Positions 20,712 to 63,945 of a DNA stretch of 64,000 bases are shown in pieces. The stretch's first letter is position 1. Every line of letters starts with the position of its first letter. The notes below the pieces were generated by a model. The model ran no database searches and was not told where the DNA came from. It saw only the letters and a list, made by a program, of their open reading frames with translations. The DNA comes from a virus. Lineage: Duplodnaviria > Caudoviricetes. The translations under genes and the position numbers were made by a program. The stretch covers positions 36,765 to 100,764 of the IMG/VR virus record IMGVR_UViG_3300011008_000021; one strand, given 5' to 3'.

Positions 20712-20740
20712 ATTATACGATATTTTTATTTAATTGTCAA
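20712..20740 (-). promoter_or_regulatory. SigmaA/sigma70-type promoter
   Basis: TTGACA-17 nt-TATAAT, perfect consensus. Confidence 0.8.
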
Positions 20741-20743
20741 CAA

Positions 20744-20778
20744 TAAAAAAGAGGAGTTACAGGTAATGTAACTCCTCT
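20744..20778 (-). terminator. Intrinsic terminator after major capsid gene
   Basis: AGAGGAGTTAC-loop-GTAACTCCTCT followed by T-run on minus strand. Confidence 0.8.
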
Positions 20779-20794
20779 GAAAACATTAAGTTAA

Positions 20795-23700
20795 TCAGTC
20801 AGTAATCTCACCTGCTACAATAAGGTCTGAATTCAGAACCTTAAGATCGTACAGAGTTGACCAACCTTGTGATGTACCACCATCAGCATACTGAAGAAGC
20901 TGAGTAGGAACAATAGGCATGTAAGGTGCATACACAGCAACTGAACTCATTAAGTCGTCACCGTTAACACCAACTAAATATCTGTTTGCAGCAATTGCTG
21001 GTGAAACAAAGACCTTTAACCCATTGAGGGTACCTGCAAAATATGGACCGTTGATTGATCCAGTAGGAGCTGCGTTCCATCCATCAATAAATGTAAGGAT
21101 AGGAATAATATTAGATGCAACTACCATATAGTTAGGAGCAACATTAATCTTTAATATGATTCGCTACATCATATTGGGAATTTTTATTCCCCACTTATTT
21201 TCATAAGTGATGAGACTATATCTTCATCTTTTCGGATGTGACTTACTTCCACTTCGCTTGAAGTGTACTCCCTTTCGGGATAGTCGTTGGGGCTGAATCC
21301 CATTAGGATTCCTGCCTGCTGATTATCCAATCCTACAACTTTTTAAACCATCATATATTCATTACTGATATATTGTGGTATGTAGGCTCTAAGGATTTTC
21401 CAGCATATCAAGTCATTTATTATTCAAACATGTTTCCATGTAAGCGAGACTTGTTTACCTAATTGTAAACTTGATTTATCAATATATTTGTTATATATTA
21501 TGCTGCTAATAATAAATCAGTTAATCTCTTTGTCTTATCGTAGATAAGTTGTCTTGCAATCTCAACTATCTCAGTAAATCCTGCATAGTGATCTCTCTTG
21601 CTAACACCAACAGGAAGTGTCTTGCTCCATGCAAGTGCGGTCTGTGCAGTTCCTGCTGTTTCATCAAGTAACTGAACTACTTCTGTATCAATTTCATATG
21701 AAAGCTGTCCAACTGCCTTCTCAGCTAACTGATCTCCAAGATCAAATCCATAATCAGTCTTAGCTTGGAATGCTGCCATTTGGCTTGCGTATCTTACGTT
21801 TATATCGTTTCCATATAAACTCTATATATTACTACATAGGCGGGACTATATCATATTCTTAATTTCTTTTACCAAAACTAAGAATCCATGCACTTCGATT
21901 CCACTTAGAATCTACTCTACTTTCTTGTTCACTTATGTCTTTCTCATAAGATATGATTTCGATAGTCTCTGAACTTTACTTTCATAATAGAAAGTCTTAG
22001 CTGCTGATTGTCCTATTAGCATGGCAATTCTAATAGGAGTTTCCAGCAATTCACATGGTTTTTCATAATTTATTTCATTAAACTCAATTTGGATAAATCA
22101 CTTCATAATTTAAATTATTAAGAGTTGCATAATTTCTTTTTTGAACATCCCTTTTTGTCCAAACATCTATAATCATATTAGACCAATCTGTATTATCTTT
22201 CTTTAACTGCTCTAATAATTTTAAATCGTCTGAATTATTTTCATCAAATGGATGTCCACCATGGGATGGGTGATAATTAACTTCTATAAATTTATCTTCT
22301 GACTTAATATAAAAATCACAATCAAAAGGGTATCTCTCATCAGAATATTGTCTAACAATATCTGACTCATCATACATTTCTAATAAACACTTGTATAATT
22401 CTTCTTCAGGTTTTGACTTATTAAAAGAATTATTCTTTTTCATTGTTTCAAAATGCTGATTCCAAATATCCTTATTCTTTAAAGGATTTGTTACACCATA
22501 ATTCTTTAACAATGTCTTTGTATATTTATCTCTACTTTCAGGAACTAAATTAGGTGATTTTTGACCATATCTTTCCAACATAGTATTTTCATATTTCTGT
22601 TGAGCTTCTTCGGTCTTTTTAGAATCACTTATTTTCTTCCTTATCTCTGGACTTTGATTGTGTTCTTTATAACCATATCTTTCTAAACTTGTTTGTTGTG
22701 CTTTTTCATAATTATTATAATTAGCATCTCCATATCTATCAAGCTTAGTTTGTTTTACCTTTTCAACATTTGTTAAACTCTTTTTACCATATCGTTTCAT
22801 CATGGTTGAATTACGAGCTTCTCTAAAATGTTTCTTTTGTTCATCGGTTAAATATCTTCTACCCATATTTACTCTCCTAATAGTAAAAATATATAAATGT
22901 AGTAATCTAAAGAATTTAGGACTTCTTTAAAAACAGTTTGCAACCTGCTGTCCTACATTATAATCATATTATAACACAATTATAATGATTTGTAAATTGA
23001 GATTTAATTTATAAAATTAAGCTACAGCTTTTAAGTCTTTATAGTAGACTGCGATTCTTCTGGCCTTTGCAATTAATGGAATGCTCTTCATTTCAGCCTT
23101 AAGCATTGGAAGATCATTTTGAGGAATTACAACATTATCGTAAACATAAGCAACTTTAACAGTATCAGTAGCTCCAATAGCAGTACCAGTACCATTTGAA
23201 AGAGTTAATGTTTTTCCATCGGTTGCAACAGTAACTGATGCATCATCTGCAACAGGAACTGCAACTCCAGCAGATGTGGTTATAGAAGTAATTCTTGCTT
23301 TTGATGCTGTATCAGGTCCATTATAAACTGGGAACCAAGAAGCAGTAACAGCAGCATTGGCACCTGTGAATGATTCTACCACTCTTGCAGCAGTATAATT
23401 AGGATCAACATTTCCTAATTTAAATGGGCTGTTAAAGACATCGCCGTTAGTGGTTTCGCCCTTTGTAGACCCAGCCTGATATTCAATCAATCATGTTAAT
23501 CATAAATATTCTTAATATATAACTTTATAATTTAAATTATTTTCTTTAGCAACTCTTTGTTTTTCAACATCTCTCACTGTCCATGTTTGAATAGCATTTT
23601 GATAAAATTGAGATGTTTTAGCTTTTTCTTTCCACTCATTAAGTTGCTGAATACATTCTTCATCATCTGGATTAAATGGTTTACCACCATGTGTCCAATG

Positions 23701-26700
23701 AGCATTTAACTCTATAAATAAATCATCTTCTACAATATAGAAATCACAATAAAATGGATATCTATCCTTATCCTTGTAATTTCTTAATATTGTTTTATTA
23801 GAATAATCTTTTAATAATGATTCATATAATTCATTTTCAGGCTTAGATGTATTAAAAGAATTATTCTTTTTTCTTGTCAAATACTGTTTATTAGTTTTAA
23901 TAATGAGTCTATCTTTAGGAAGGTGTTTACCTTTTAAAGAAATGGAATTAGATTCTCCAATTCTCCTTTTATGTTCCTCAGATAAGTGTTTGCCTTTATT
24001 ATAACTCGTAGAACCATATCGTTCTATTCTTGTGTTATTGGAATGTTCGGAATAACTTCTAACACGCTTATCCGTATCCTTGGTTAAACCTTTATTCCAA
24101 ACACTGATCTCATTAGTAGAATATCTTTCTTTAAGTGTTTTACTTATTTTTTCTTTTACTTCTTTTGAAACAGATTTACCTTTATTTGAAGGACTTCTAC
24201 CAATACGTTTTTTTCTGTTTTCTTCCTTGTGTTTTTCAGAAACACCTTTTATCCACCCTTCATTTAGATATCTCTGTAATTCATTTGGATAAATTCTTTT
24301 TTCCAAATCATCCTTATGAATAACTATTCTACCTTTTTGAGTATTTGAACATTTTTCTGATTTATTCATTTGTTGAATTCTCCATAAAGAATATATAATT
24401 TAAAATTATTACATTATAAGTTATGGCTTATAATGTTTGAGGTCATATATCAGTAATATCAAATTCTTAATATTACTATTAAGTTCAGACTATATCATAT
24501 TCCTATATCGTGTTAACCTTTATAGGAATCCATGCACTTCGGATATTCCATAATATCCTACTCTACTCACTTACCATATAAAGTATTTCTCTTTATAATC
24601 CGTTTTCGATAGTCGTTGAACCTTCCTATTGATTAATCATATTATAATTAGTGAAATTCGTCAATAGGCTTGGCTTCTGATTGTCCTGCTGGCTAATACA
24701 GGATATTCCAGAAATTCACATGGTATTTTTTCATATGCATTACTGCATACGCATACTGAATTTCAATATGTGACATATCCAGACATAGAACTCATCAATT
24801 ATGTTACGAATATATCGTTTCCATATATTCTCATTATATTACTATAATGTTCAGACTATATCATTATCCTATATTCTATTACCGTTTATAGGATACCACA
24901 CATTTCGAAAATACTTATTTTCTACTCTACTCACTTACCATATAAAGTATTTCTCTTTATAATCCGCTTTCGATAGTCGTTGAACCTTCTTCTTTTTAAA
25001 GAAGCTTGGCTGCTGATTGTCCTAAATACTATGTCATATATATATAGGGTTTTCCAGCAATTAATGTGGTTTTACATATTGTTTAATTTATTTATCTATA
25101 ATAAGTCCGTTTGGATATATAATTTTAAAATTTAAATTATTGTTTCTAAAAGTTTGAAGTTTTTTTGGATCTATTTCGGTCCACCATTTATAGATATTCC
25201 AATATCTACTTCTTGGACCTTTCTGTTCAGCTTTAGATCTAATTTGTTCTGCTTCTTTTATATGTTCTTCATTATTAGGATCAAAAGGTCTTCCATTATG
25301 TTCTATTGTTCCATTTACTTCAATAAATAAATCTTCTGAAGCAATATAGATATCACAATTATATGGATAACGAACATCTCTATATGGATGAATTACATCT
25401 TCTTCACCATATTCTTGTATCAACTCATTTATTAGATCTTTTTCTACTTTTGATGAGTTGAAGCTACTATTTTTCTTTTTAGTAGAATATTCTTTTTGTT
25501 TTGCAAGTTCCCAATCTTTTACAAAACATTCATGTCCTTTTAGTTTATTGCTAGCAGACATCAAAGAAGCATTTGTTTCTTTAGTTAAGCCTTTATTCCA
25601 AGGTACATGACCCATCATGGATTGAGATTGCTTTAATTTTCTCTCTTCACTTGCAGGTATTCCTTTATTCCAAGGTTCTTTTCCTTTTCGATAAAGACTT
25701 AATTTTTTAGAAATAGTTTCTAAACTATCATTTGTATCCTTAGTTAACCCTTTGTTCCAAGAAACATAATTTCCTTTTTGTAATCTTGTTTCCTTTGTTG
25801 CTTGTCCATTAGCTTTAACTCTTTCATCTGTTTCAGCAGTTAAACCTTTATTCCAAGGATTAGATTTAAAGGTTCTTCCTGGATAAAAACCAAGCGGTAT
25901 ATCATCACCAGGTTTTAACTTGATAGTTCTAACTCCATTAGTGAAAAATTTTATTTTATCCCCTTCATAAATATCTTCTATCAACTTAAATTTAAATTTC
26001 ACAATAAATAAATTAATATATGTATCATTATATATTACTACATAATGCCCCTGAGGTTAAGGGTGAACAATTACAAGATCGTTGGCAATTAAATTCGGAA
26101 GTGCGACATTTGTTAAATTTAAACAAAATTTCTTAAACATTCCCATGTCTGCTCTCTGAGTAGCAGAAGAAGCATCAAATGCCTCGTTTAAGAAATCTTG
26201 AGTGTTCTTTAAGCAACGAGCCAGTGTAATTTTTCTATTATTATCCATCTTTTCTCCAAGATGTGATTTTCCGTAGACTGACTCAGCAATTTGAATTCTC
26301 TTTTTATCAAATATGTTACGAATTAATCGTGTCCATTAATTCTCTATATGTTTCCATATAGTTCAGACTATATCATATACCTCAATTGTTTTAACCTTTT
26401 AAGGTACCCCATCACTTCGAAAATACTATTTTCTACTCTACTTTGTTATTCATATAAGTATTTCTCTTATATTATCATTTCGATAGTCGTTGAACCTTCC
26501 GTTCAAAGAACGGCTTGGCTGCTGATTATCCCTGGCTAAAGGATTTTCCAGCAATTCAATGGGTTTTATTAAACTAATGTTTATTTATTAATAACTAAAT
26601 TTTTATATATTATTTCAAAATTTAAATTATTATCTCTAAATATTAGTTCCACATATTACTATGTGGAAGCTCAAAAAATTTAAGCTTCAACTAAATTCTG

Positions 26701-26709
26701 ATTAGCCAT
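20795..26709 (-). CDS. Major capsid protein (T4 gp23-like), six exons: 26709-26682, 26307-26060, 24795-24766, 23487-23041, 21785-21524, 21141-20795; spliced CDS 1362 nt = 453 aa
   Basis: Spliced product MANQNLVEAYKKRIQ...PNLIANDLVIVHPMSSMSGYVTYIEY...KARRIAVYYSQMAAFQAKTDYG...LSYEIDTEVV...KRFAPNYMVVAS...AVYAPY matches gp23 motifs; every junction keeps frame; downstream of prohead protease. Confidence 0.93.
21142..21523 (-). mobile_element. Group I intron 5 of capsid gene (no ORF, 382 nt)
   Basis: P ATGCTGGAA, Q AATCAGCAGG, R CAACGACTA, S AAGATATAGTCT; IGS CAA-G-TCTC pairs with exon GAGAU and TTG; ends in G. Confidence 0.9.
21786..23040 (-). mobile_element. Group I intron 4 of capsid gene (1255 nt), with endonuclease ORF; apparent terminal A
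   Basis: P AATTGCTGGAA, Q AATCAGCAGC, R TCAGAGACTA, S ATGATATAGTCC; IGS GCT-G-TAG. Confidence 0.88.
22084..22866 (-). CDS. Intron-encoded endonuclease (RYG/NYG helical repeats plus Vsr/EDxHD-like C-terminal nuclease domain)
   Basis: Repeats LERYG..NP; C-terminal SKPE...RYPFDCDFYI...FIEVN.H..HGG; AGGAG RBS. Confidence 0.8.
   Translation of the reverse strand: MGRRYLTDEQKKHFREARNSTMMKRYGKKSLTNVEKVKQTKLDRYGDANYNNYEKAQQTSLERYGYKEHNQSPEIRKKISDSKKTEEAQQKYENTMLERYGQKSPNLVPESRDKYTKTLLKNYGVTNPLKNKDIWNQHFETMKKNNSFNKSKPEEELYKCLLEMYDESDIVRQYSDERYPFDCDFYIKSEDKFIEVNYHPSHGGHPFDENNSDDLKLLEQLKKDNTDWSNMIIDVWTKRDVQKRNYATLNNLNYEVIYPN
23488..24765 (-). mobile_element. Group I intron 3 of capsid gene (1278 nt), ORF in 3' (P9) region
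   Basis: P1 CATAU/GTATG, R TCAACGACTA, S ATGATATAGTCT, ends ...ATTG. Confidence 0.9.
23512..24369 (-). CDS. Intron-encoded endonuclease (NUMOD3-type repeats plus Vsr/EDxHD-like domain)
   Basis: NKGK..S.E.K.KI repeats, WNKGLTK; RYPFYCDFYI..DDLFIELNAHWTHGG. Confidence 0.8.
   Translation of the reverse strand: MNKSEKCSNTQKGRIVIHKDDLEKRIYPNELQRYLNEGWIKGVSEKHKEENRKKRIGRSPSNKGKSVSKEVKEKISKTLKERYSTNEISVWNKGLTKDTDKRVRSYSEHSNNTRIERYGSTSYNKGKHLSEEHKRRIGESNSISLKGKHLPKDRLIIKTNKQYLTRKKNNSFNTSKPENELYESLLKDYSNKTILRNYKDKDRYPFYCDFYIVEDDLFIELNAHWTHGGKPFNPDDEECIQQLNEWKEKAKTSQFYQNAIQTWTVRDVEKQRVAKENNLNYKVIY
24796..26059 (-). mobile_element. Group I intron 2 of capsid gene (1264 nt), ORF near 5' end
   Basis: P1 CCCU/GGGG, P AATTGCTGGAA, Q AATCAGCAGCC, R TCAACGACTA, S ATGATATAGTCT, ends ...AATTG. 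Confidence 0.9.
25088..26002 (-). CDS. Intron-encoded endonuclease (WNKG repeats plus Vsr/EDxHD-like domain)
   Basis: Four (P/S)WNKG repeats; RYPYNCDIYIASEDLFIEVNG..EHNG. Confidence 0.8.
   Translation of the reverse strand: MKFKFKLIEDIYEGDKIKFFTNGVRTIKLKPGDDIPLGFYPGRTFKSNPWNKGLTAETDERVKANGQATKETRLQKGNYVSWNKGLTKDTNDSLETISKKLSLYRKGKEPWNKGIPASEERKLKQSQSMMGHVPWNKGLTKETNASLMSASNKLKGHECFVKDWELAKQKEYSTKKKNSSFNSSKVEKDLINELIQEYGEEDVIHPYRDVRYPYNCDIYIASEDLFIEVNGTIEHNGRPFDPNNEEHIKEAEQIRSKAEQKGPRSRYWNIYKWWTEIDPKKLQTFRNNNLNFKIIYPNGLIIDK
26308..26681 (-). mobile_element. Group I intron 1 of capsid gene (no ORF, 374 nt)
   Basis: P1 GAAGCTU/GAGCTTC; P GAATTGCTGGAA, Q AATCAGCAGCC, R TCAACGACTA, S ATGATATAGTCT; ends ...ATTTG. 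Confidence 0.92.
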
Positions 26710-26824: not shown

Positions 26825-28360
26825 TTATTTTAAACCTGCTAAAGATATTAATCCATCATCTATCTCGTCATCGAAATTACTTGCAGGAATCGGTAAATCG
26901 ATCTTAGGTGATGAAATTTTCAGTTGAGTATTTTCAGTAAGTTTTCTAAATGGTAACTTACTCATATTTAATTTATACTCTTGTAGACTTTCACAAATAG
27001 AATCTATATCACTGAAAGTATAAGAAGAAGGAAGTTTATTTTTTATCTCATTACTTGTTACACCAAGTTTCACTGCCTGAGAATCAATATATTTATCAAT
27101 TGCTCTGTTAGCAATTTTCTTATATTTCTCGACTAACTTATTAGCTGATTCTAATTTGTTGTTATACTCTGATTGTTTTAATTTAAAGTCCTTATCAAGA
27201 TCAGCTAAATTTTCATTTAAAGATTTTAATTGATCATCTTTTTCTTTTAACTCTTTTGAGTATTTTTCGCTAAGCATTTGAAATCTATTATTATTTTTAT
27301 TAATAGATTCTTTTAACGAATTTTTGGTTTCATTTACTGAATTAAGTTGCTCAGTTAATGATGAAATTTTTAAATCTTTATTTTTATTTAATTCAACTGA
27401 CTTTTGAAGTTCTTTATTTAGTTTTGTTAATTTTTCTTCTAATCCTTTAACCTTGGTAACAGATGAAGTTAAATTTGAAATTACTTTTTTATATTTAGCA
27501 ATCTCATCTTCGTGTTCTGATTCTCTTGTATAACAAGCTGATAATTTTTCTTGAAGTTTAACTATCTTGTTTTCAAGTTGTTGATTAGCATTTAATGATT
27601 CTTGAAGTTCCGATAAAATATTATCCTCGTTATTATCGACTGAAACATCTTTCTTCTCTTCATCTATGTTATCAACTAATGCATTTTCATTAGTTGGTTG
27701 CACTGATTCTTCCAGATTTATATTTAATCTTTTTAATGTACTTTCCATGATTAATCTTTCATCTGGATTAGCTTTATTTAAAGATTCTGTTAAGGCTTTT
27801 CCTAAAGTAGATTTTTCTAATCCTTCTTTAAAAGTTAATCTTGCTTTTTTAACAGCAGGAAGAATTACTAAATCGAATGCTTGAAAATCATAACTGTCTG
27901 GATCAACTTCTTCATTTCCATTTAGTCCTGTATAAGTATCTCCACTACCTCTTGATGATATTCCAAATTTATATCCGTATTTTGCTAATGTGGCTGCTAT
28001 TCGTCCATTTGGAGTATCTAATACATCCCATCTTCCATACAGTAATCCGTCGTTACCTTTTGTAGGTGGTTCAGACATACAAATTGCTACTTCAGAAGTT
28101 TTTGTTTCTTCTCTGTCTGATGGATGATCTAATTCTCCTAAAATTCCACCACATTCAAATAATTCTTTTACTATAGGATCATTAAAAACTTTCTGCCAAA
28201 GTTCTTCTGAATAGTGTCTACCATTTCTGGTTCCATCTACTATATCTGCACAAGGACCTTCGAAAGTTCCTAAAATTGTTTCACCTTTACTGTTCTGCTT
28301 TTTAGAATCATCAAATATTAAATCTTCAGTTTTTTTATTTTTTAATTCTATATTAGGCAT
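26825..28360 (-). CDS. Prohead protease (gp21-like) fused to coiled-coil scaffold
   Basis: RNGRHY, LGELDHP, LDTPNGRI, GISSRGSG, FDLV..P catalytic motifs; ~300-aa coiled-coil tail. Confidence 0.92.
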   Translation of the reverse strand: MPNIELKNKKTEDLIFDDSKKQNSKGETILGTFEGPCADIVDGTRNGRHYSEELWQKVFNDPIVKELFECGGILGELDHPSDREETKTSEVAICMSEPPTKGNDGLLYGRWDVLDTPNGRIAATLAKYGYKFGISSRGSGDTYTGLNGNEEVDPDSYDFQAFDLVILPAVKKARLTFKEGLEKSTLGKALTESLNKANPDERLIMESTLKRLNINLEESVQPTNENALVDNIDEEKKDVSVDNNEDNILSELQESLNANQQLENKIVKLQEKLSACYTRESEHEDEIAKYKKVISNLTSSVTKVKGLEEKLTKLNKELQKSVELNKNKDLKISSLTEQLNSVNETKNSLKESINKNNNRFQMLSEKYSKELKEKDDQLKSLNENLADLDKDFKLKQSEYNNKLESANKLVEKYKKIANRAIDKYIDSQAVKLGVTSNEIKNKLPSSYTFSDIDSICESLQEYKLNMSKLPFRKLTENTQLKISSPKIDLPIPASNFDDEIDDGLISLAGLK

Positions 28361-53581: not shown

Positions 53582-53654
53582 TGATCCTTACCAGATTCGA
53601 ACTGAGTATTTCAACCTTGAAAGGGTTGCGACCTTACCATTAGTCGAAAGGACC
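53582..53654 (-). tRNA. tRNA-Glu (UUC)
   Basis: Cloverleaf; anticodon arm CAACC-CTTTCAA-GGTTG; one bulge in T stem; no encoded CCA. Confidence 0.85.
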
Positions 53655-53795
53655 TCTTAAACCCTTTTTTATTATGTAGAAAGTCTTTCACATGGTAAAC
53701 TACTTATTATTAAACCGGCTATCTACGGGTGGCCCATAAGGTGGACCAGCTATGAATTCCACATATATTAAGAAAGGAGGACCAACTATGTTTCA

Positions 53796-53884
53796 TCGGA
53801 GCTCCGGGACTCGAACCCGGATTAAACCTTGTTAGGGTCTACGGTTTATAAGACCGTGGCTTTCACCAGTTACGCTAAGCTCCG
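53796..53884 (-). tRNA. tRNA with UAU anticodon (Ile) and long variable arm
   Basis: Acceptor CGGAGCT/AGCTCCG; ACGGT-CTTATAA-ACCGT; V-arm AGACC/GGTTT; T arm CCGGG-TTCGAGT-CCCGG. Confidence 0.85.
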
Positions 53885-54120
53885 TATATAGATAATGTGA
53901 AAGACCTACCACATTATCTTTGGCTCATATTTATTTATATAGCGCACCAACTTGTTTTTATAAACAATAAACATATCTGTTTGGGTCTTAGCCATCCGTG
54001 CGCTTTATATTAGCTTAGTAATTTTACATTCACTTTATACTATGCTATCTAATGTGAAAAACCAGGAAATATATTCCCTTATGAATTTATATACCAAGTT
54101 CGGTTGATCGGTTCTACGTA

Positions 54121-54317
54121 TGTTGCGGGTAAGGATTTGCACCTTACATAGTTGGAGTTTTAGGATATTATTGCTCTCGATTACACTCTGCGTTACACCC
54201 GAAGGCTGATAATGATAACTGGTTATCCGCTGACTCAGAGTTATTTTACGAATTACGCACACTCAACCAACCTATAAGAAGCCTCACTCTAGCGTCTACC
54301 TATTCAGCCACCGCAAC
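54121..54317 (-). ncRNA. tRNA-Leu-like shell with ~125-nt insert in the anticodon loop
   Basis: Acceptor GTTGCGG/CCGCAAC-A; D arm TGGCTGAATAGGTAGACGC; T arm GTAAGG-TGCAAAT-CCTTAC. Confidence 0.7.
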
Positions 54318-54386
54318 CTTTAAAGTGAGTTTACAGCGAACACCAACCTAACTCACTTTTAAATAGTGTTCTTACTATTTATATTA

Positions 54387-55289
54387 TTATGCGGCAATCT
54401 CGCTATAAAAAGCATCTACAATGCCATGACCATTTGCGATCTTATTCCAACGACTTTCTTCGAAGTTCTGAGTAAGTCTTCCAGGAGCTGCGTGGTCAAT
54501 ATAGTCAGTTACTGCATTCAGTGCGCCCCAAGCAGTTCCTCTAAAATTTCTAAGATCTGTTGCTTCCAGAGCCTTAAACATACCTTCTTTAATATCTACA
54601 ATATTTCTGATTTTTCTTTCAGAATCTTTGTTCTGATCAATTGGAAATACTCTGTCAAACACTCTTTCAAACTGATCAGTTGTGAATGTTGTTTGTGCAA
54701 GTCTGTCAGCATCATTCGCAAGACCAATCATATAATTGTTTGCAAGACCGAGTGTATGTTTTGCTTCCTCAAGTTTCTGAGTAATATTACCCATATGTCT
54801 TGTAGACCAACTTCTGCTTGCATTCTTAAGAGCAAAATTAAGTGCATTACTGCAAGCAATTCTGATAGGAGTCATTGCAACTTTGATTGCACCTGTTCCA
54901 TCGTGACTATTGATAAATACTACATAAGGATCGAACTTGTCACCTAAAATGTCGGTGGACGGAAGTTTAGCTAAGAGCCATACAGCTCTTCCATGATGAA
55001 ATACACCAGCCTTCTCAAAAGTTACACCTCTCTGAGTAAGAGAATTAGTGAAATCAAAAGCATCAACATTCTGTACGATCTGGTATCTTCTTCCAACAAT
55101 TCCAAGAACTTCACCATCACTGGATCGTGTGTTTGCAAAATATCCATCAATTACATTTCCAGAAGAATTGTAAACAGGATTGCTTACAACATCCCAATCA
55201 AGTCCAGACATTGCAAGTGCTTCGTCTGCTGTAGTTGCTGTGGTTACATCGGTTCCAAGCTGATTCCAAGGAAGATTTCTGTTAAACAT
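54387..55289 (-). CDS. DUF932 (phage/plasmid TIGR03299-like) protein
   Basis: GLDWDV, Y.IVQN.DAF, NSHDG, TPIRIACSN, RH, GTAWGALNAVT. Confidence 0.85.
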   Translation of the reverse strand: MFNRNLPWNQLGTDVTTATTADEALAMSGLDWDVVSNPVYNSSGNVIDGYFANTRSSDGEVLGIVGRRYQIVQNVDAFDFTNSLTQRGVTFEKAGVFHHGRAVWLLAKLPSTDILGDKFDPYVVFINSHDGTGAIKVAMTPIRIACSNALNFALKNASRSWSTRHMGNITQKLEEAKHTLGLANNYMIGLANDADRLAQTTFTTDQFERVFDRVFPIDQNKDSERKIRNIVDIKEGMFKALEATDLRNFRGTAWGALNAVTDYIDHAAPGRLTQNFEESRWNKIANGHGIVDAFYSEIAA

Positions 55290-55334
55290 ATTTTTTGTCC
55301 TCTTTTCTTTTTTTAGTTAATTTTTACATTATTT

Positions 55335-55363
55335 AGTATAACACAACTTGAAATTAATGTCAA
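55335..55363 (-). promoter_or_regulatory. SigmaA-type promoter
   Basis: TTGACA-17-TATACT with TG extension. Confidence 0.75.
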
Positions 55364-55564
55364 CCGTTTTCCTGTAAAATAGAAATTTATTTATTCAACT
55401 CTTTATCTATATATCTTTTTAATTCTTTAATTGTAGTTTCGGTTTTCTTATAAATCTCAAGAATCTTATAAGAACTATCTAATATAAGATATTCAGTATT
55501 ATTTTCTTTAATAATATAATTATTATAGACTAAATTTCTTGTTATGTATTTCATTTAACTATTA

Positions 55565-55774
55565 TTACCATTCAAAATATACACCACAGGTATTACATCT
55601 AAACATTCCTTCTGAAACATTATGAGGATATCCCATGCAATTACAGATTGGACAAATATAACCTTCAGATCTCTTTTTGGCTCTAATTCTTACAATAGGT
55701 TCGCAGAAATTCTCGTCCTGCATATAAGATCCTGAAAGAGTAATCTTTGTTGTATTATACAATTTATTTCTCAA
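55565..55774 (-). CDS. Small zinc-ribbon protein
   Basis: CPIC...CNTC. Confidence 0.55.
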   Translation of the reverse strand: MRNKLYNTTKITLSGSYMQDENFCEPIVRIRAKKRSEGYICPICNCMGYPHNVSEGMFRCNTCGVYFEW

Positions 55775-55971
55775 ACTCTTTTAGCCTCACCTTTCTCATA
55801 CTTGAGTTTAATTTCTTCAATTGAAATCTTCGAGATTGATTCTAAATCATCAAGGTGAGGATACTCTACGTACCATTTTTCTTTAGGAGTATTTTGAGTT
55901 TCTGAAATAGTACAAGCCTCGGTATAATTTCTTGTAAAGAACTGACCTACCTTATAAAAAACAATAGTCAT
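55771..55971 (-). CDS. Hypothetical protein
   Basis: 66 aa, AAAGGTGG RBS. Confidence 0.5.
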   Translation of the reverse strand: MTIVFYKVGQFFTRNYTEACTISETQNTPKEKWYVEYPHLDDLESISKISIEEIKLKYEKGEAKRV

Positions 55972-56008
55972 ACAACTTCCACCTTTCTTAATTATATAAA
56001 GATTGAAT

Positions 56009-56266
56009 TTAATCCAATGCTAATACAATTTCTTTCGTATAAAGGAGCCAGTTAAAATACTCAACATAGAAATAAGCTGTTTGATATCCTTCGTGTGATG
56101 CTCTAATCGTATACCCATCACTCATTAACTCGATATTACATCTTACCAAATCACAGAATTCTTCTTTTCTGTTAAGCTGTCCAATAGGTAACAACTTAAT
56201 CAAGTAAGGTACATCAAAATTAATCTTATATTTTGAAACATAATCCACAGATTTTTTCTTACGCAT
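56009..56266 (-). CDS. Hypothetical protein
   Basis: 85 aa, AAAGGAG RBS. Confidence 0.55.
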   Translation of the reverse strand: MRKKKSVDYVSKYKINFDVPYLIKLLPIGQLNRKEEFCDLVRCNIELMSDGYTIRASHEGYQTAYFYVEYFNWLLYTKEIVLALD

Positions 56267-56289
56267 TACTTAACTCCTTTCTTTATTAT

Positions 56290-56318
56290 AGTATAATACA
56301 TATTTTAATTATTGTCAA
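56290..56318 (-). promoter_or_regulatory. SigmaA-type promoter
   Basis: TTGACA-17-TATACT. Confidence 0.7.
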
Positions 56319-56907
56319 GACTAAATTTATCTACTAGACATTCAGTATATAACTGATGAATTAAATTATAGCAGTCTTTCCAATTATCAACTCTATAGAT
56401 ATAAGGATACTCTGAAATATCTACATCGCGATTATAGAATGCTTTAAATAATATTCCTTTATAATTTCCATTTTTTAAATTTTCAATATAATCATCGACT
56501 AATACAAGTCCATTTAATAATTGTTTATTATGAATGGTTATAATCTGACTTTCATCAATAAAAGGAAAATAATGATTAATTACATATTTATATTTATCTG
56601 AAAGATACTGAATATGAGTTGCGGTACAAAGATACACTTTAAATTTTTCATCTATTAATTTCTTTATGTACTTCTGTGCTCCAGAAATTGGATGAACTAA
56701 TTGCCACAACTTAGGATCTTCCAAAGCACCATAAATATGCTGTTTAGGCAAAGTCGTAAATAACTTAGTCATGTCCCATTCTTTAGCATCGTTTGGATCT
56801 ACACACAAACGATATTTATCATTTAAATATATACACCATGCAGACAGCAAATCTTCAATAGTATCATCTACATCAATATAAATAATTCTATTATAATCAA
56901 TCATCAA
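56305..56907 (-). CDS. 5'(3')-deoxyribonucleotidase (HAD, NT5C-like)
   Basis: IDVDDT, LCTA, K..L...LVDD...N motifs. Confidence 0.85.
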   Translation of the reverse strand: MMIDYNRIIYIDVDDTIEDLLSAWCIYLNDKYRLCVDPNDAKEWDMTKLFTTLPKQHIYGALEDPKLWQLVHPISGAQKYIKKLIDEKFKVYLCTATHIQYLSDKYKYVINHYFPFIDESQIITIHNKQLLNGLVLVDDYIENLKNGNYKGILFKAFYNRDVDISEYPYIYRVDNWKDCYNLIHQLYTECLVDKFSLDNN

Positions 56908-57106
56908 TAATTATACCTCTGTCTAATTCATAAGTGAAATTATGACCAGGACACCAATTTGGTTTTACGGTTCTAAGTGACATTTTTAAATTGGGTCTAT
57001 AAGAACAAAGTAGAAATCCACAATTATCTAGATTTCCATATTTTGGATCAACTCTAACTCTAGATCCACAATTAATACATTTACGATCCTGTACTTCCAA
57101 ATCCAT
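56897..57106 (-). CDS. Small Cys-rich protein
   Basis: CINC...C...PNWCP. Confidence 0.45.
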   Translation of the reverse strand: MDLEVQDRKCINCGSRVRVDPKYGNLDNCGFLLCSYRPNLKMSLRTVKPNWCPGHNFTYELDRGIIIDD

Positions 57107-57509
57107 TAGATCCTCTTTCTGTTTCCTTGAAGCAATCTACTAATACTGGTTCCGGCGTTGCAATAGGAAGTATTACTAATTGAGAAATTTTATCACCCTT
57201 ATTAAATTTAAGAAAAGTTCCAGAAGATCCATCTCTATACAACTTAACTACAATCGATCCAGTATAGCCTGAATCTATTACTCCTTCAGATCTAATGCTT
57301 GCTTTTACATTTAGTCCACTTTTACTTTTTATCATTCCAACATATCCATCTGGAATTTCAACATGTACACCAGTATCAATAATTATTTCACAATTACTAC
57401 CAAGTGTAAAATCAATTGGAGTATACAAATCTAGACCAGCATCGGACTTATGAGCTCTTGTTGGGATATAAGCACCATCATCAAGCATTACATTAATCTT
57501 ATCAAACAT
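57081..57509 (-). CDS. dut: Trimeric dUTPase
   Basis: DAGLDL, KSGL, GVIDSGYTG, ISQLV, RGSNGFGSTG. Confidence 0.95.
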   Translation of the reverse strand: MFDKINVMLDDGAYIPTRAHKSDAGLDLYTPIDFTLGSNCEIIIDTGVHVEIPDGYVGMIKSKSGLNVKASIRSEGVIDSGYTGSIVVKLYRDGSSGTFLKFNKGDKISQLVILPIATPEPVLVDCFKETERGSNGFGSTGS

Positions 57510-57640
57510 TTAATTTTCCTCGTTCAGTAAATTCTTCTTATGTTTTTCTTTCTTGTATTTTTTCGATTCAATAACTTTATTTGGAGGTGGAATTTGAATT
57601 CTATATTTAATTGGTTTCTTTTTCAATATCTTAGATTTCA

Positions 57641-58060
57641 TTAATAACTATCATAAAAATAAGCATAATCTTTTGGATTATCTTTTAAATGATTAATTAA
57701 CCAAGAAATATTAATAATATCTTGACCTAGATGTAGAATCATTTCACTTAATTCCCAAATAGTATTATCCCAGCACTCAGGATTCTTTAAAAAATCGTAT
57801 ATACCATTTCGAATTCCAATCAGCTGTTGAATATTAAGTTCATAATATCCATCATTATCTTCTTGAAGTAATTTTGGAATAAAACCAAAAATCATACTTC
57901 TAATATTCCAGCACTTACGCCAGTAACAAATGTCATAAATAACTGAATTGTCCTCTTTTTCACTTCTAGATACTTCACTGATATTTAAATAATCAGGTAA
58001 AGAATCTATATCCAGTTTATTTCCAATTCTTCTTAGATGTATACCATTATCTAATCCCAT
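57641..58060 (-). CDS. Conserved phage protein (MGLD...YWRK family)
   Basis: MGLDNG...ICYWRKCW...FYDSY. Confidence 0.65.
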   Translation of the reverse strand: MGLDNGIHLRRIGNKLDIDSLPDYLNISEVSRSEKEDNSVIYDICYWRKCWNIRSMIFGFIPKLLQEDNDGYYELNIQQLIGIRNGIYDFLKNPECWDNTIWELSEMILHLGQDIINISWLINHLKDNPKDYAYFYDSY

Positions 58061-58888
58061 TTAAATATCTCCTAAAATCGATTTCCAATGATTCCAATAT
58101 CTTACTACAGCTCTACTGTTTTCAGTTGAACCATGATGCTCAAGACCTCTGTTATAAGCATCATAAGCTCCTTCAGTGTTACCATATTTTACAACACATT
58201 TAGAAAACTCATACATTCCAGCATCAACTGAGTGATAAGGATCAAATAAAATTGTTATATCATTCCACCCAAAAACTCTTTTAATATCAGGCCAAACATA
58301 TTTTTTATTTGTTTGACACATTCCATAATCCTTTGTCGCACTAACAACATGAAACTGAATTTCATCAATAGTACCAAAGGTACCAAATTCACTTTCTTGC
58401 TGGCATAATCCTAAAAACAAACAATATTTAACACCGTTTTCAATACATTTATCATATATATAATGTTGAAGATCTTCAGATAATGGAATATCTAATGTTG
58501 GAGGATAAAATTTGTCCGGTTCAATTTCATTTTCATTTCCAAGATCTACAGTATTAATAAATCTATATTCGTTGTTGACAATAATCTTAGTAATATCTTT
58601 ATGTTGTTCAACAATTTCTACTTTACAACCTTTAAAGATCTTATAAGATACATTGCTAATATCATAAGCAACGGTATCTCTAATTACATATCTTACTTCC
58701 CTGATACTCGAAAAATTTTGAATTGATAATTCAGGGGAGATAAGAATTTTAACGTCATTGTCAAATGGACCTTCATTAATATCTATTACTTCATTTTTAA
58801 TATCTATAATTAAATTGTCGTTTGCATAGCAAACAGAACAAGAACTCATGATTAATAACATTGATAACTTAATTATCTTCTTTAACAT
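58061..58888 (-). CDS. Secreted lytic transglycosylase (SLT-like)
   Basis: Signal peptide; QQESEF, DYGMCQTN, AYNRG. Confidence 0.75.
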   Translation of the reverse strand: MLKKIIKLSMLLIMSSCSVCYANDNLIIDIKNEVIDINEGPFDNDVKILISPELSIQNFSSIREVRYVIRDTVAYDISNVSYKIFKGCKVEIVEQHKDITKIIVNNEYRFINTVDLGNENEIEPDKFYPPTLDIPLSEDLQHYIYDKCIENGVKYCLFLGLCQQESEFGTFGTIDEIQFHVVSATKDYGMCQTNKKYVWPDIKRVFGWNDITILFDPYHSVDAGMYEFSKCVVKYGNTEGAYDAYNRGLEHHGSTENSRAVVRYWNHWKSILGDI

Positions 58889-58911
58889 AATAAACCTCCA
58901 TAATCATTATT

Positions 58912-58940
58912 ATAATAACATAGTCTAAGAAAAAAGTCAA
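58912..58940 (-). promoter_or_regulatory. SigmaA-type promoter
   Basis: TTGACT-17-TATTAT with TG extension. Confidence 0.55.
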
Positions 58941-59003
58941 ATAAAAATAGCATAGTAATTTAAATTACTATGCTATTTTTATAAAATATATTTATTAATA
59001 AAA

Positions 59004-59075
59004 AGCAGGTAGCGGGAATTGAACCCGCATCAATTGATTGGAAGTCAATTATAATTACCATTATACCATACCTGC
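59004..59075 (-). tRNA. tRNA-Gly (UCC)
   Basis: Acceptor GCAGGTA/TACCTGC-T; ATTGA-CTTCCAA-TCAAT. Confidence 0.9.
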
Positions 59076-59087
59076 TTAGTTGTGTTT

Positions 59088-59220
59088 CTAGATCCAAAGA
59101 ATTCTACCAGTTAAACTATATTGTACAAAGAACACAACCAACTTTGTTGACAACAATAGGATTCGAACCTATACCTTTCTTGTAGCCTAAGAAATTAATT
59201 ATTTGCTGTTATGGATCTTA
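59088..59220 (-). ncRNA. Skipping-rope-like RNA 1, enclosing a permuted tRNA-like fold
   Basis: TAAGATCCATAACAGCAA...TGGATCTAG; inside, T arm then acceptor stem-loop then D arm. Confidence 0.7.
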
Positions 59221-59226
59221 ATTAAG

Positions 59227-59336
59227 TGGAGCCCTCCGGAGTTGCACCCGTGTCTCAGTTGACGAAACTGCCTGTTGCTTCTTGACATACCTAATATGTT
59301 GTCATCATATTCCCTTTGTCTACACAATATGGCCCC
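59227..59336 (-). ncRNA. Miniature tmRNA-like RNA (tRNA-like domain only)
   Basis: GGGGCC.../...GGCTCC-A with G3-U70; 5' ...TAGAC and 3' GACACGGGTGCAACTCC resemble tmRNA ends; only ~60 nt between. Confidence 0.5.
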
Positions 59337-59429
59337 TGATGGAGGCTTTCATTTTTACTGAATCTTATCCTCCCAGCATAACAGGTTTTTACTTTAATTT
59401 TACGCGTTCCTTCAGGAAGTAATTCCTAA

Positions 59430-59511
59430 CCGGCGGAGTTGGACTCGAACCAACGAAGACCGAAGCCAAGGGATTTACAGTCCCCCGCAATTGCCGCTAT
59501 GCGACCCGCCG
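59430..59511 (-). tRNA. tRNA-Tyr (GUA) with C1-G72 and G73
   Basis: GGGGA-CTGTAAA-TCCCT; long V-arm; acceptor CGGCGGG/TCCGCCG. Confidence 0.85.
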
Positions 59512-59678
59512 AAAAATGTTTGTTTTGACAATCTTATTGGTACAAACGAGAAAAACCTCACCAGTACAGTCGTAACAACGAGACGCCCTTGATACAAAGC
59601 CGGCATCAGTATCTCAGGCCGAACGGCCTCATCCGCTCCTGTCATATCCTGTTAATTCAGGCATCACTCCGGTTGAAA

Positions 59679-59751
59679 TACGCACAGAGAGATTCAAACT
59701 CTCAGTACACTGATCCTAAGTCAGCTGTGGATTCCGTTCCACCACGTGAGC
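59679..59751 (-). tRNA. tRNA-Leu (UAG), short variable loop, weak acceptor stem (possibly degenerate)
   Basis: GCTGA-CTTAGGA-TCAGT; T arm GAGAG-TTTGAAT-CTCTC. Confidence 0.6.
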
Positions 59752-59755
59752 AAAA

Positions 59756-59838
59756 TGCCGGATACCGGACTCGAACCGGTACGATATTTCTATCGAGGGA
59801 TTTTAAGTCCCTTGTGTCTTCCATTCCACCAATCCGGC
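59756..59838 (-). tRNA. tRNA-Leu (UAA)
   Basis: Canonical type II cloverleaf, AGGGA-CTTAAAA-TCCCT. Confidence 0.92.
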
Positions 59839-60008
59839 AGGCGGAAATTTTCCTCCTCAGAGCGGATTACTTTCCAAACCGATCAGCTGATTATACGTTT
59901 CTTTTTTATTAACAACATAAAAGAACACCTTAAAAGAAAATTGCGTGTGAAAATTATTTTTAACAGTTAATACAACACAAAAAACATCTGTTGGCCATTA
60001 ATAAGAAA

Positions 60009-60104
60009 CAAGACTCAATAAGTATAATAGACTTGTATTAATTAAAATCAATTCTTAATTATAATTCTATTTTCATTAGAAGATAATTGCTGTAATGAGT
60101 CTTA
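60009..60104 (-). ncRNA. Skipping-rope-like RNA 2
   Basis: TAAGACTCATTACAGCAA...TGAGTCTTG. Confidence 0.65.
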
Positions 60105-60110
60105 AAAAGA

Positions 60111-60908
60111 TCAAACTAAATCTTCTATGTAGCTTCTATTTTCTTTAAAAACTGGAGTAAACCTATCTAAATTCCAAGATTTTCTAATAAACGATTCACC
60201 TTTATCATTATATTTAGTTGTTTCTACTTTTACACACGCAGTACCATATTTTTGATTAGATGTATAACCATTCCAATCTTGTCCAATAGAAATTAACATA
60301 CTACAAATATCTTTACAAGATTTATTCAATAAATCTTTATTGGAGAAGTAAAATTGTCCAACAGATAATATACTATTTCTAATACAATCATCTTGTCTCC
60401 AAATAAGACAATTTATGACTTCTTCTTTTGGAATTGAAAAAACTCTTGAATCAAAACAAGCACTATTTTCTAATGCTTTTTTATATTGTTTAAATCTATC
60501 ACTATCCCAGCCACCCATCTGACTTTTTACCAAGAACTCATTAAAAATTTTATTAAAATAAAAAGTTGCAAGCGATGCTGAAACTGAACTCATTTTTTGA
60601 ATATTATATCCAAACCAAGCATCAGTATTGATAGTATTGTAATCAGTTAGAACAAGAGTTATTTCATCTGATTGAGTATATCCAAAAACACATCCTTGAA
60701 TATTTTCACAAAGATGTCTTGTAGTTTCTTGCATAACATACATAAAAATAGGATCAAAAGGTTTTTCAAATCCTCTTGTAAATGTATGAAATGCTTTTCC
60801 ATCTAACCTGATGATTACTGGAATATGTCTTGGAAGATATATTCTGGAAATATACTCATACTGCTTCATCCTATTTCCTAACGAATCTTTTCTGTATTTA
60901 TCAGACAT
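60111..60908 (-). CDS. thg1: tRNA-His guanylyltransferase (Thg1-like 3'-5' polymerase)
   Basis: IRLDGKAFHTFT, YTQSDEI, QKMSS..AS, FDSR, WRQDDC.RNSI. Confidence 0.93.
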   Translation of the reverse strand: MSDKYRKDSLGNRMKQYEYISRIYLPRHIPVIIRLDGKAFHTFTRGFEKPFDPIFMYVMQETTRHLCENIQGCVFGYTQSDEITLVLTDYNTINTDAWFGYNIQKMSSVSASLATFYFNKIFNEFLVKSQMGGWDSDRFKQYKKALENSACFDSRVFSIPKEEVINCLIWRQDDCIRNSILSVGQFYFSNKDLLNKSCKDICSMLISIGQDWNGYTSNQKYGTACVKVETTKYNDKGESFIRKSWNLDRFTPVFKENRSYIEDLV

Positions 60909-61240
60909 TATTTCTTCCTTCCAAGCTTGTAACCTAATTCCAGATATTCTTTTAATTTATCAGGTGTTATCTTTATAGTTTCTTTACCATTATTTATAAA
61001 TATCTTCTTTATTTTTCTTTTATCAATAACAGTATTTTCTATTACACCTAAATCAGTTGAACTACTATTTGTAGTTGATACAACATCTTTAAGCTCATTA
61101 ATTCGAATTTGTTTATTATATGTTTCTGCTAATCTTTTTAAAATAATTAAATCTTGATTAGATACATTACTAAAGATAATACCATCTGATTTTCCTTGAA
61201 AATAGGTACTTAAATCATTTGCTAAAGTAACTCTTAACAT
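60908..61240 (-). CDS. Hypothetical protein with C-terminal homing-endonuclease-type small module
   Basis: FINNG...L..YL..GY..GR; GGAGG RBS. Confidence 0.6.
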   Translation of the reverse strand: MLRVTLANDLSTYFQGKSDGIIFSNVSNQDLIILKRLAETYNKQIRINELKDVVSTTNSSSTDLGVIENTVIDKRKIKKIFINNGKETIKITPDKLKEYLELGYKLGRKK

Positions 61241-61264
61241 ATAATACCTCCCTTCTTATACTAT

Positions 61265-61293
61265 ATTATAACATATATATTAAAAGGTGTCAA
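61265..61293 (-). promoter_or_regulatory. SigmaA-type promoter
   Basis: TTGACA-17-TATAAT with TG extension, perfect consensus. Confidence 0.8.
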
Positions 61294-61345
61294 CTCAAGA
61301 AGAGAAGAAAGGAGGAAAAGCTCAGTTAGAGTTGACACCTTATTT

Positions 61346-62386
61346 TCATTTACTTAACATAAGAAACCACCATTCATCAAAAGACATTGTAATAAATTCA
61401 TCTACATTTTCAACTCCAATATCTTTTTCAATCATGTAATTTATAGTTCTATTAACCAACGTATGAATATCATCAATTCTAAAGTTGATTAAAATCTTTT
61501 CTATATATTTCTTACATTCTTTTATCAATGTTCTTGATAATACATCTTCTGACCCATAACGATATACTAATATATTATAATTAAAATATAAATAACCTAT
61601 ATCAGCAAATACCATTGATTTTATACTATCAAAAGATTCCTGAGTTGTAATAAATGGAACAGAACTAAGTATAGAATTAAAAACAATATTACAATAATAT
61701 TTTGCTATTCCATAATGATTAAAAACATATTTACCTTCAACTAATTTTCTATGAGTAGAGGATACGTGTTCATACCACTTATAAGTTAATACTCTATAAT
61801 AAGGTAATGTAAATCTATCAATTTCATTTAATTTAAAAAGAGTCTCTACTACCTTATTATTAAAATACAAGTCTTCTAAATATTGAAGATTTTTCTTAAA
61901 CTTGATCTTATATTTATTAAGAAGATTTTTTCTATTGTAAAATTTTCCATGCAACCACACATCTATATTATCTTGTGGATCTGTGTGATATGTAATTTCA
62001 TTAGTATCTTCGTTGTACTCATATAATAATGTACAACAAATATATTTTAAATTATCTCTATTGATTATTTGAAATACATTATTAAAAGCATCATCTTCAA
62101 ACTCATCGTCTTGATCTATAAAAGTAACCCAATCACCTGATGCTACTGACAATCCAAGATTTCTAGAATTACCTGCACAATGAACATCTAAATCTACTGT
62201 AATTAAACGAAGTGGTAAAATATTATAACAAAAATAATTTCTAATCTGCTCTAAAGAATTATCCGTACAATAATCTGCAACAATAATTACTTCATAATCT
62301 GAAAAATTTTGTTTTACAATTGAATCTAACGTTCTTATTATCGTATCTCCACCATTATGTAGAGGAATTATAACTGATAATTTCAT
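61346..62386 (-). CDS. Glycosyltransferase family 2
   Basis: LSVIIP.HN, D.CTD, SRN.GL..ASG.W..FIDQDD. Confidence 0.9.
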   Translation of the reverse strand: MKLSVIIPLHNGGDTIIRTLDSIVKQNFSDYEVIIVADYCTDNSLEQIRNYFCYNILPLRLITVDLDVHCAGNSRNLGLSVASGDWVTFIDQDDEFEDDAFNNVFQIINRDNLKYICCTLLYEYNEDTNEITYHTDPQDNIDVWLHGKFYNRKNLLNKYKIKFKKNLQYLEDLYFNNKVVETLFKLNEIDRFTLPYYRVLTYKWYEHVSSTHRKLVEGKYVFNHYGIAKYYCNIVFNSILSSVPFITTQESFDSIKSMVFADIGYLYFNYNILVYRYGSEDVLSRTLIKECKKYIEKILINFRIDDIHTLVNRTINYMIEKDIGVENVDEFITMSFDEWWFLMLSK

Positions 62387-62402
62387 ACCTAATTAATTAT
62401 TA

Positions 62403-62516
62403 CAAGACATTAAAAATGGGCAAAATTATTGGATTCGAACCAATCTTTATTTATTATATTAAATATCTTCTTCCTTTAAAGAATCCTGCATCTTAATTAT
62501 TGCTGTAAATGTCTTA
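62403..62516 (-). ncRNA. Skipping-rope-like RNA 3 containing an isolated T arm
   Basis: TAAGACATTTACAGCAA...ATTGG-TTCGAAT-CCAAT...AATGTCTTG. Confidence 0.65.
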
Positions 62517-62525
62517 TCTAATATA

Positions 62526-62598
62526 TGTGCCATGCGGGAATTGAACCCACGACCACTTGATTAAAAGTCAAGTGCTCTCCCAGCTGAGCTAATGGCAC
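62526..62598 (-). tRNA. tRNA-Lys (UUU)
   Basis: Canonical cloverleaf, CTTGA-CTTTTAA-TCAAG. Confidence 0.93.
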
Positions 62599-62604
62599 AG
62601 ATCA

Positions 62605-63759: not shown

Positions 63760-63777
63760 ATTAAACCCCTTTCCGTA

Positions 63778-63850
63778 TACCGATAATAGGACTCGAACCT
63801 ACACTACCTTGTTCCTAAGACAAGTGCCTCTTCCATTGGGCTATATCGGT
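63778..63850 (-). tRNA. tRNA-Leu (UAG) with short variable loop
   Basis: Acceptor ACCGATA/TATCGGT-A; CTTGT-CTTAGGA-ACAAG; variable loop GTAGT. Confidence 0.85.
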
Positions 63851-63855
63851 ATTAA

Positions 63856-63945
63856 CGACAGCTCAGGGACTCGAACCCTGACACCGCTTTCACGGCTACT
63901 ACTGGTTTTCAAGACCAGCTCCTTACCAATTAGGATTAAGCTGTC
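63856..63945 (-). tRNA. tRNA-Ser (UGA)
   Basis: Type II cloverleaf, CTGGT-CTTGAAA-ACCAG, G73. Confidence 0.92.

Follow-up and report, generated by a model that had tools for sequence, protein, structure and literature searches.

Five group I introns and two micro-exons in a probable gp23-type major capsid gene of an uncultured phage

The stretch of DNA analysed here (the window) comprises 64,000 nucleotides (nt), taken from positions 36,765 to 100,764 of the IMG/VR virus record IMGVR_UViG_3300011008_000021 (Duplodnaviria; Caudoviricetes). The source record is linear, 100,764 bases long and about 66% complete. On the minus strand of the window, between positions 20795 and 26709, lies a gene for a gp23-like major capsid protein that is divided into six exons by five group I introns (Table 1). 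We set the splice junctions by reading the minus strand and by comparison with intron-free homologues. An earlier note on this DNA had claimed micro-exons of 28 and 30 nt and an intron content of 4553 out of 5915 nt (77%), and the independently set junctions gave identical figures. The exons sum to 1362 nt, corresponding to 453 amino acids (aa), and all six are open, with no frameshift or stop codon. The locus is very probably the single major capsid gene, of the gp23 type, of an uncultured T4-like phage, and has been colonised by the five introns.

A covariance-model search had been proposed in the earlier note as a check on the five group I introns. In the Rfam search of the window, RF00028 gave five matches, all on the minus strand and all inside the capsid gene. 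Each match covers model positions 1-253, and the scores of 53.5-75.1 bits are above the gathering score of 50, so that all five introns pass. The ribozyme cores lie at 26602-26344 (intron 1), 25113-24832 (intron 2), 24775-24466 (intron 3), 22106-21822 (intron 4) and 21466-21192 (intron 5) on the minus strand, where the match in intron 3 takes in the end of the preceding exon via P1. Outside the capsid gene, no group I intron was found by Rfam in the whole 100.8-kb record. The U.G pair in P1, which had also been claimed for each intron, was read at all five 5' splice sites. The P1 pairings are GAAGCUU/GAGCUUC (intron 1), CCCU/GGGG (intron 2), CAUAU/GUAUG (intron 3), CUAU/GUAG (intron 4) and GAGAU/GUCUC (intron 5); these helices contain 4-7 exon pairs, and a P2 hairpin begins 0-1 nt later in every intron. 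The G-binding G-C pair in P7 (GACUA/UAGUC) is present in all five introns, and a P10 pairing of UUG/CAA was found for intron 5.

Introns 1-4 form one family with cores 62-73% identical. Within this family, introns 2 and 3 share 73% identity and a near-identical stretch of about 60 nt, and a 3' tail hairpin is common to introns 1, 2 and 4. Intron 5 belongs to a separate lineage and is 45-51% identical to introns 1-4. In a megablast search of phage GenBank sequences with the whole locus, the only matches were a 74% match of an endonuclease tail to Lak megaphages and short core stretches that resemble introns of Twort-like and SPO1-like phages at 83-100% identity; these short matches are the sole lead toward subgroup IA2. 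Introns of the family that has this hairpin in its tail (..TATGGAAACGATAT..) were also observed in 31 IMG/VR contigs (L088-L118), within various other genes, and one near-identical copy recurs in more than 10 contigs.

The joined product was compared with 64 full-length intron-free homologues of at least 430 aa, an alignment that the earlier note had likewise suggested. The 453-aa protein is colinear with all of them from end to end, with zero gaps at the junctions. Together with the joined frame and the Pfam match to Gp23, this bears out the continuous gp23-like product that had been claimed. The best identity is 77%, to P0004 (458 aa), which is itself an intron-free allele; another such allele is P0252 on L140 (457 aa). 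Exon 6 alone matches PF07068 (Gp23) with an E-value of 1.8e-11 and 44.5 bits, against a cut-off of 24.4, and PF07068 is present in all listed homologues of exon 4 except P0094 and P0102. The residues flanking the junctions are kept in 60-64 of the 64 homologues, with the exception of A9, which directly precedes junction 1 and is kept in 35. The neighbours of A9 are E8 (64/64) and Y10 (63/64). Junction 2 is flanked by P92 and M93 (both 64/64), junction 3 is preceded by Y102 (64/64), and junction 4 is flanked by Y251 (63/64, with F in the remaining one), S252 (64/64) and Q253 (63/64), and junction 5 by R338 (60/64) and F339 (62/64). A related capsid gene was not found in the phage GenBank collection, either by megablast with the whole locus or by tblastn with exon 4.

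Table 1. Features of the capsid locus, with positions in the window
Feature	Description	Position	Strand	Basis or placement
Prohead protease	T4 gp21-type (Peptidase_S77), long coiled-coil tail	26825..28360	-	upstream of capsid gene; Pfam
Exon 1	28 nt; from the start codon, nine codons and one base (MANQNLVEA + T)	26682..26709	-	P1, homologue N-terminus
Intron 1	374 nt, no open reading frame (ORF), last base G	26308..26681	-	RF00028, 68.9 bits
Exon 2	248 nt, last residue P92	26060..26307	-	colinear with homologues
Intron 2	1264 nt, with endonuclease ORF, last base G	24796..26059	-	RF00028, 61.7 bits
Intron 2 ORF	304 aa	26002-25088	-	between P2 and P3
Exon 3	30-nt micro-exon, MSSMSGYVTY	24766..24795	-	homologue residues
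Intron 3	1278 nt, with endonuclease ORF, last base G	23488..24765	-	RF00028, 74.1 bits
Intron 3 ORF	285 aa	24369-23512	-	downstream of ribozyme core
Exon 4	447 nt, last residue Y251	23041..23487	-	about 80% identical to intron-free homologues
Intron 4	1255 nt, with endonuclease ORF, last base A (21786)	21786..23040	-	RF00028, 75.1 bits
Intron 4 ORF	260 aa, DUF7487	22866-22084	-	between P2 and P3
Exon 5	262 nt, first residues S252, Q253	21524..21785	-	weak Gp23 match
Intron 5	382 nt, no ORF, last base G	21142..21523	-	RF00028, 53.5 bits
Exon 6	347 nt including stop codon	20795..21141	-	Pfam Gp23
Intrinsic-terminator-like hairpin	12 pairs and T run	20750..20778	-	directly 3' of capsid stop codon

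The prohead protease gene lies upstream of the capsid gene, and in the relatives L139 and L141 the gene order is portal, protease, capsid and gp13; the intron-split gene is thus in the usual place of a capsid gene within the head module. The earlier note had raised an intact capsid gene elsewhere as an observation that would speak against a spliced copy at this locus. The 100.8-kb record, about two thirds of the genome, holds a single Gp23-family locus, which is the intron-split gene itself.

A second assembly of the same phage is available (L139, ENA ERZ3810914 NODE_52). Apart from the extra bases described next, this independent assembly is near-identical to the window. Identity is 100% in the 3' part of intron 2 and in everything that follows it within the gene (exon 3, introns 3-5 and exons 4-6). 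Within L139:2400-3510 (window 25100-24360) there are 364 extra bases in comparison to the window, where the segment made of the 3' half of intron 2, exon 3 and the 5' half of intron 3 is present twice, and the two copies are joined via the near-identical stretch common to introns 2 and 3. Most likely, the extra segment is a loop of the assembly graph that was traversed twice, at 4x coverage. Alternatively, exon 3 may truly have been duplicated by an unequal crossover.

Several points weigh against a working capsid gene with five self-splicing introns. The P1 helix is just 4 bp long in introns 2 and 4, splicing at the five junctions and its efficiency are what we infer from sequence, and a second capsid gene could lie in the missing part of the genome, although we regard this as unlikely. 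A more drastic possibility is that this copy is decaying or does not function, or that it is a chimera in which assembly stacked introns from several strains, with the working gene residing in the missing third. The linear, incomplete record, the loop in L139, which marks the region as hard to assemble, and the lack of a terminal G in intron 4 would all be consistent with this. However, the gene occupies the canonical position between the prohead protease and neck genes, its six open exons are 77% identical to intact homologues, all five cores pass the threshold and none of the three endonuclease ORFs is broken. In addition, outside the loop the ENA assembly does not differ from the window between the 3' part of intron 2 and exon 6, exon 6 included, and introns 4 and 5 are also present in diverged relatives. 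We therefore give a decayed or chimeric locus hardly any credence and continue with the reading of a functional intron-bearing gene.

At the 3' ends of the introns, the last base (the omega position) is G in introns 1, 2, 3 and 5 and A in intron 4. Intron 4 appears to splice after an A at the omega position, since P1, the covarying P10 and P9.0, the reading frame and four diverged phages agree on it. Its guide GCUGUAG pairs with CUAU^AGC (^ marks the junction), where CUAU belongs to the 5' exon, with a U.G pair at the site, and the pairing runs on without a break into AGC of the 3' exon. Just one junction preserves both the frame and the conserved ..AVYY^SQM.., and it leaves A 21786 as the last base of the intron. 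P10 covaries at this intron, being AGC:GCU in the window and in L142 and AGU:ACU in L141. Across the intron family, P9.0 consists of the two bases before the terminal base, paired with bases 3-4 of J7/9, and it covaries as well: AA:UU, AU:AU, AG:CU and CU:AG are found elsewhere in the family and GC:GC in the lineage of intron 4. The base following the P9.0 pair is G throughout the family; the intron 4 lineage is the exception, with A in this place in four diverged phages. The orthologues of intron 4, located at the same site in L138, L141 and L142, all end in ..GCA.

Splicing after A is nevertheless made less comfortable by the P7 G-binding pair of intron 4, which is canonical although the omega-G is absent; in model ribozymes, a change at omega combined with a canonical G-binding pair impairs exon ligation. 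Intron 4 could instead use a canonical omega-G, with the 3' site after G 21788 and the 5' site after U 23043, so that the product would read VYSSQ and not VYYSQ. A G is indeed found two bases before the proposed intron end in all four orthologues (..GATA[C/A]G^CA, with ^ at the site required here), and both the canonical P7 pair and the near universality of omega-G would fit such a site. On the other hand, U 23043 opposes a U of the guide, so that a U.G pair would be lacking, and we found no alternative guide. The GC partner of P9.0 would fall partly outside the intron, and the P10 covariation marks AG(C/U) as the first exon bases. Finally, this choice of sites needs Ser251, where the homologues have Y (63/64) or F (1/64) but never S. 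On balance, we consider the use of omega-G unlikely.

Other candidate sites for intron 4 were tried and rejected. Exon 4 ending at 23048 and exon 5 starting at 21792 (canonical G, 5-bp P1) would give an in-frame TAA in L138, L141 and L142, and the invariant Tyr251 would become Ala. With a 3' site after AAATG at 21777, the conserved S-Q-M codons would turn intronic.

If confirmed, splicing of intron 4 after A would be, to our knowledge, the second natural case of a group I intron without omega-G. It would also be the first such case in a phage gene that encodes a protein, and comparative covariation for it is already available. A natural Coxiella intron without omega-G is named in a title cited in PMC3428280.

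Introns 2, 3 and 4 carry ORFs, all three intact, and we read them as homing endonucleases of presumed activity, composed of NUMOD3/DUF7487 repeats followed by a putative Vsr-like PD-(D/E)XK domain. The predicted nuclease domain is C-terminal and common to all three proteins (window 25088-25498, 23512-23922 and 22084-22494, respectively, minus strand). The intron 4 ORF matches DUF7487 with 49.2 bits against a cut-off of 27, and many close homologues of the intron 2 and intron 3 ORFs carry PF07460 (NUMOD3) above threshold. We modelled the structure of the C-terminal domain from 42 homologues (pLDDT 89.5). In structural comparison, the model aligned with the Vsr endonuclease with a Z-score of 8.2 (rmsd 2.6, 89 residues) and with the catalytic domain of I-Bth0305I with a Z-score of 6.3, while many PD-(D/E)XK nucleases ranked below. 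Foldseek E-values for the model were 0.13 or worse. The language-model neighbours of the ORFs fall into NUMOD3, Vsr and DUF559 clusters, in agreement with the Vsr-like fold match. This assignment is weakened by the Vsr match being at a borderline level and by the ORFs of introns 2 and 3 themselves, which reach about 16 bits for NUMOD3, under the cut-off of 20.4.

Judging from the model, the C-terminal domain of the three ORFs would have the same Vsr-like nuclease fold as I-Bth0305I (PDB 3R3P) and Vsr. In the intron ORFs it is preceded by repeated DNA-binding motifs. In contrast to this likeness in fold, there was no sequence match for the C-terminal domain in Pfam, nor for the intron 3 endonuclease in the PDB. 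The family of this nuclease domain, which is without a Pfam model, is large; the region search alone gave 387 proteins at E <= 0.001. Invariant residues of the 136-aa domain include D60, E71, H78, D118 and K121. We also noticed that about 240 bases of the intron 3 ORF are 74% identical to DNA of a Lak megaphage.

For comparison, about 100 related capsid loci were collected from IMG/VR. About three quarters of them are uninterrupted, 20 loci are interrupted once and four twice, and wherever tested the interruptions were group I introns. The capsid gene of the 151-kb G001 (IMGVR_UViG_3300028797_000104; capsid loci L097:1-5500 and L119:6200-7309) consists of seven exons, with a micro-exon of about 60 nt, and six group I introns, and every group I intron of G001 is located in this gene. 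Four capsid introns are present in L141 (a 35-kb Logan contig from DRR595526; 4100-7700), at about residues 50, 65/66, 102/103 and 251/252, where the last one is an omega-A intron with a DUF7487 endonuclease ORF. Over the clade we count roughly 15 or more insertion positions, many of them within residues 40-108; this is a rough count, as the ends of high-scoring segment pairs are fuzzy by a few residues. The site of intron 2 (92/93) is also occupied in L017, L124 and L126, by introns that are 65-69% identical to intron 2 over about 1.1 kb, endonuclease gene included. The site of intron 3 (102/103) is also occupied in G001 and L141, and an orthologue of intron 5 was found at the same site in L138.

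In the earlier note, five splicing events on a capsid mRNA were called exceptional. Five introns are certainly extreme, but the word overstates the case, since G001 has six, L141 four and about one quarter of the relatives one or two, and since a crAss-like capsid gene (Zeta group) in five fragments has been published (PMC7886860).

In G001, TAG is read as Gln: its capsid gene contains four TAG codons in frame that align with Q of the window protein, and its open frames are sixfold longer with TAG as a sense codon. No sign of recoding was seen in the window itself.

According to the mechanism that we propose, transcription of the capsid gene would stop at the hairpin at 20778-20750 and yield a pre-mRNA of about 5.9 kb. 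From this RNA, each ribozyme would then excise itself, with guanosine attacking at the P1 U.G pair, and exon joining would be helped by P10 and P9.0, until the six exons form the 1362-nt frame for the 453-aa protein. In the unspliced RNA, an in-frame stop codon is found exactly at the junction for intron 1 (TAA), intron 2 (TAA) and intron 3 (TGA), and after 8 and 9 codons for introns 4 and 5, respectively. Such stop codons at or near the junctions would keep ribosomes off the ribozyme cores. During co-infection, the intron endonucleases presumably cut intron-free alleles of related phages, and the intron is copied in.

The junctions in invariant codons, the three endonuclease genes, the recurrence of introns 2-5 at the same sites in diverged relatives and the variable presence of the introns together form a signature of selfish homing, and we infer homing as the cause of the intron accumulation. 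Near-invariant insertion codons make good and stable homing targets, which would explain why introns pile up in the capsid gene. The simplest account is the accumulation of selfish mobile introns in invariant codons of the gene that is most strongly conserved between co-infecting relatives.

The earlier note had suggested that splicing may time or limit capsid synthesis and that exon 3, a multiple of three, may be skipped in frame. Taken as a regulatory device, the five splicing events would delay or throttle the synthesis of the capsid protein and the skipping of exon 3 would give a shorter isoform. With 30 nt, skipping of exon 3 is arithmetically possible, and it is flanked by the two introns that share 73% identity and the stretch of about 60 nt. 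The same layout is found in Twort orf142 and in the Coxiella 23S rRNA gene, where exon skipping was observed (PMC10136302). However, all 64 homologues have the M93, G98 and Y102 that exon 3 encodes, and 63 of them its S95, so a product without this conserved core segment is expected to be defective; it is unlikely that it would be a working capsid protein. Moreover, about three quarters of the relatives are intron-free and the number and position of introns vary freely, from 0 to 6, whereas a conserved regulatory feature would not be expected to vary in this way, and three of the introns carry endonuclease genes. Nothing was found in support of the timing or limiting of capsid synthesis, and the pattern fits selfish homing. 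We consider a regulatory role very improbable.

Among known systems, Twort orf142 has three group I introns and an exon of 23 nt, and exon skipping occurs there (Landthaler and Shub 1999, cited through PMC10136302). Like the capsid gene, it combines several group I introns with two very similar ones that flank a micro-exon (23 nt, compared with 30 nt here). In contrast to its three introns, the capsid gene is of the T4 type and has five, three of which carry genes for putative Vsr-like endonucleases. In Coxiella, two group I introns of different subgroups, one of them without a canonical omega-G, reportedly flank a 34-nt exon of the bacterial 23S rRNA gene, and skipping of this exon is said to have been seen. 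The gene described here is instead a protein-coding phage gene, and its omega-A intron carries an endonuclease gene.

The intron-rich crAss-like and Jug phages are likewise uncultured and have core genes, including the major capsid gene, split by multiple group I introns with endonuclease genes. The Jug phages have 18.5 introns per genome on average, and about half of the tested ones are backed by RNA (PMC12880540). They and the crAss-like phages represent another phage lineage and another capsid family, whereas the gene in the window is gp23/T4-like; their introns are spread over the genome, whereas here all are in one gene. All five cores were scored directly in our case, while the crAss-like case was deduced mainly from protein domains. 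Conversely, splicing in Jug phages is supported by metatranscriptome reads, and in the capsid gene it is predicted from sequence. In mycobacteriophage LittleE, a group I intron with an endonuclease gene in the capsid gene is spliced efficiently during late expression (PMC3706429). This is a single, experimentally verified intron in an HK97-type capsid gene, compared with five in the gp23-type gene described here.

In the surroundings of the capsid gene, a perfect sigma-70 consensus (TTGACA, 17 nt, TATAAT) was seen at 20712-20740 on the minus strand, just 3' of the capsid terminator, and it precedes small ORFs at 20616-19973. The promoter scan across the region gave 32 sigma-70-like sites, compared with 37 in shuffled sequence, i.e. 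no excess, and since these sites are no commoner than in shuffled sequence we do not claim a promoter. Farther away, a cluster of nine tRNA genes was found by Rfam at window 53582-63945 (minus strand).

Five introns in a gp23 gene are at the far end of the known range and not a new kind of thing. Homing introns in phage structural genes and intron-dense gut phages are already known, and the gene is therefore an extreme example and not a new principle. In practice, public gene calls list short fragments at such loci, so that annotation by automatic means will overlook the capsid gene throughout this T4-like clade. The locus offers a compact natural test bed, in which a single mRNA combines five ribozymes with two micro-exons and three endonuclease genes and must splice efficiently for the phage to live. 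Intron 4 and its orthologues in three other phages seem to dispense with the terminal guanosine that standard exon ligation requires. We lean slightly toward a wider view, in which a natural group I lineage combines an A at omega with a canonical G-binding site in at least four diverged phages, within the essential late gene of highest expression, and, at the same time, the capsid gene of the clade is an intron sink like organellar cox1, with about 15 or more sites, as many as six introns in a single gene and exons as short as 28 nt. If true, this would provide a natural system for exon ligation without omega-G, and for how many tandem ribozymes fold on one mRNA.

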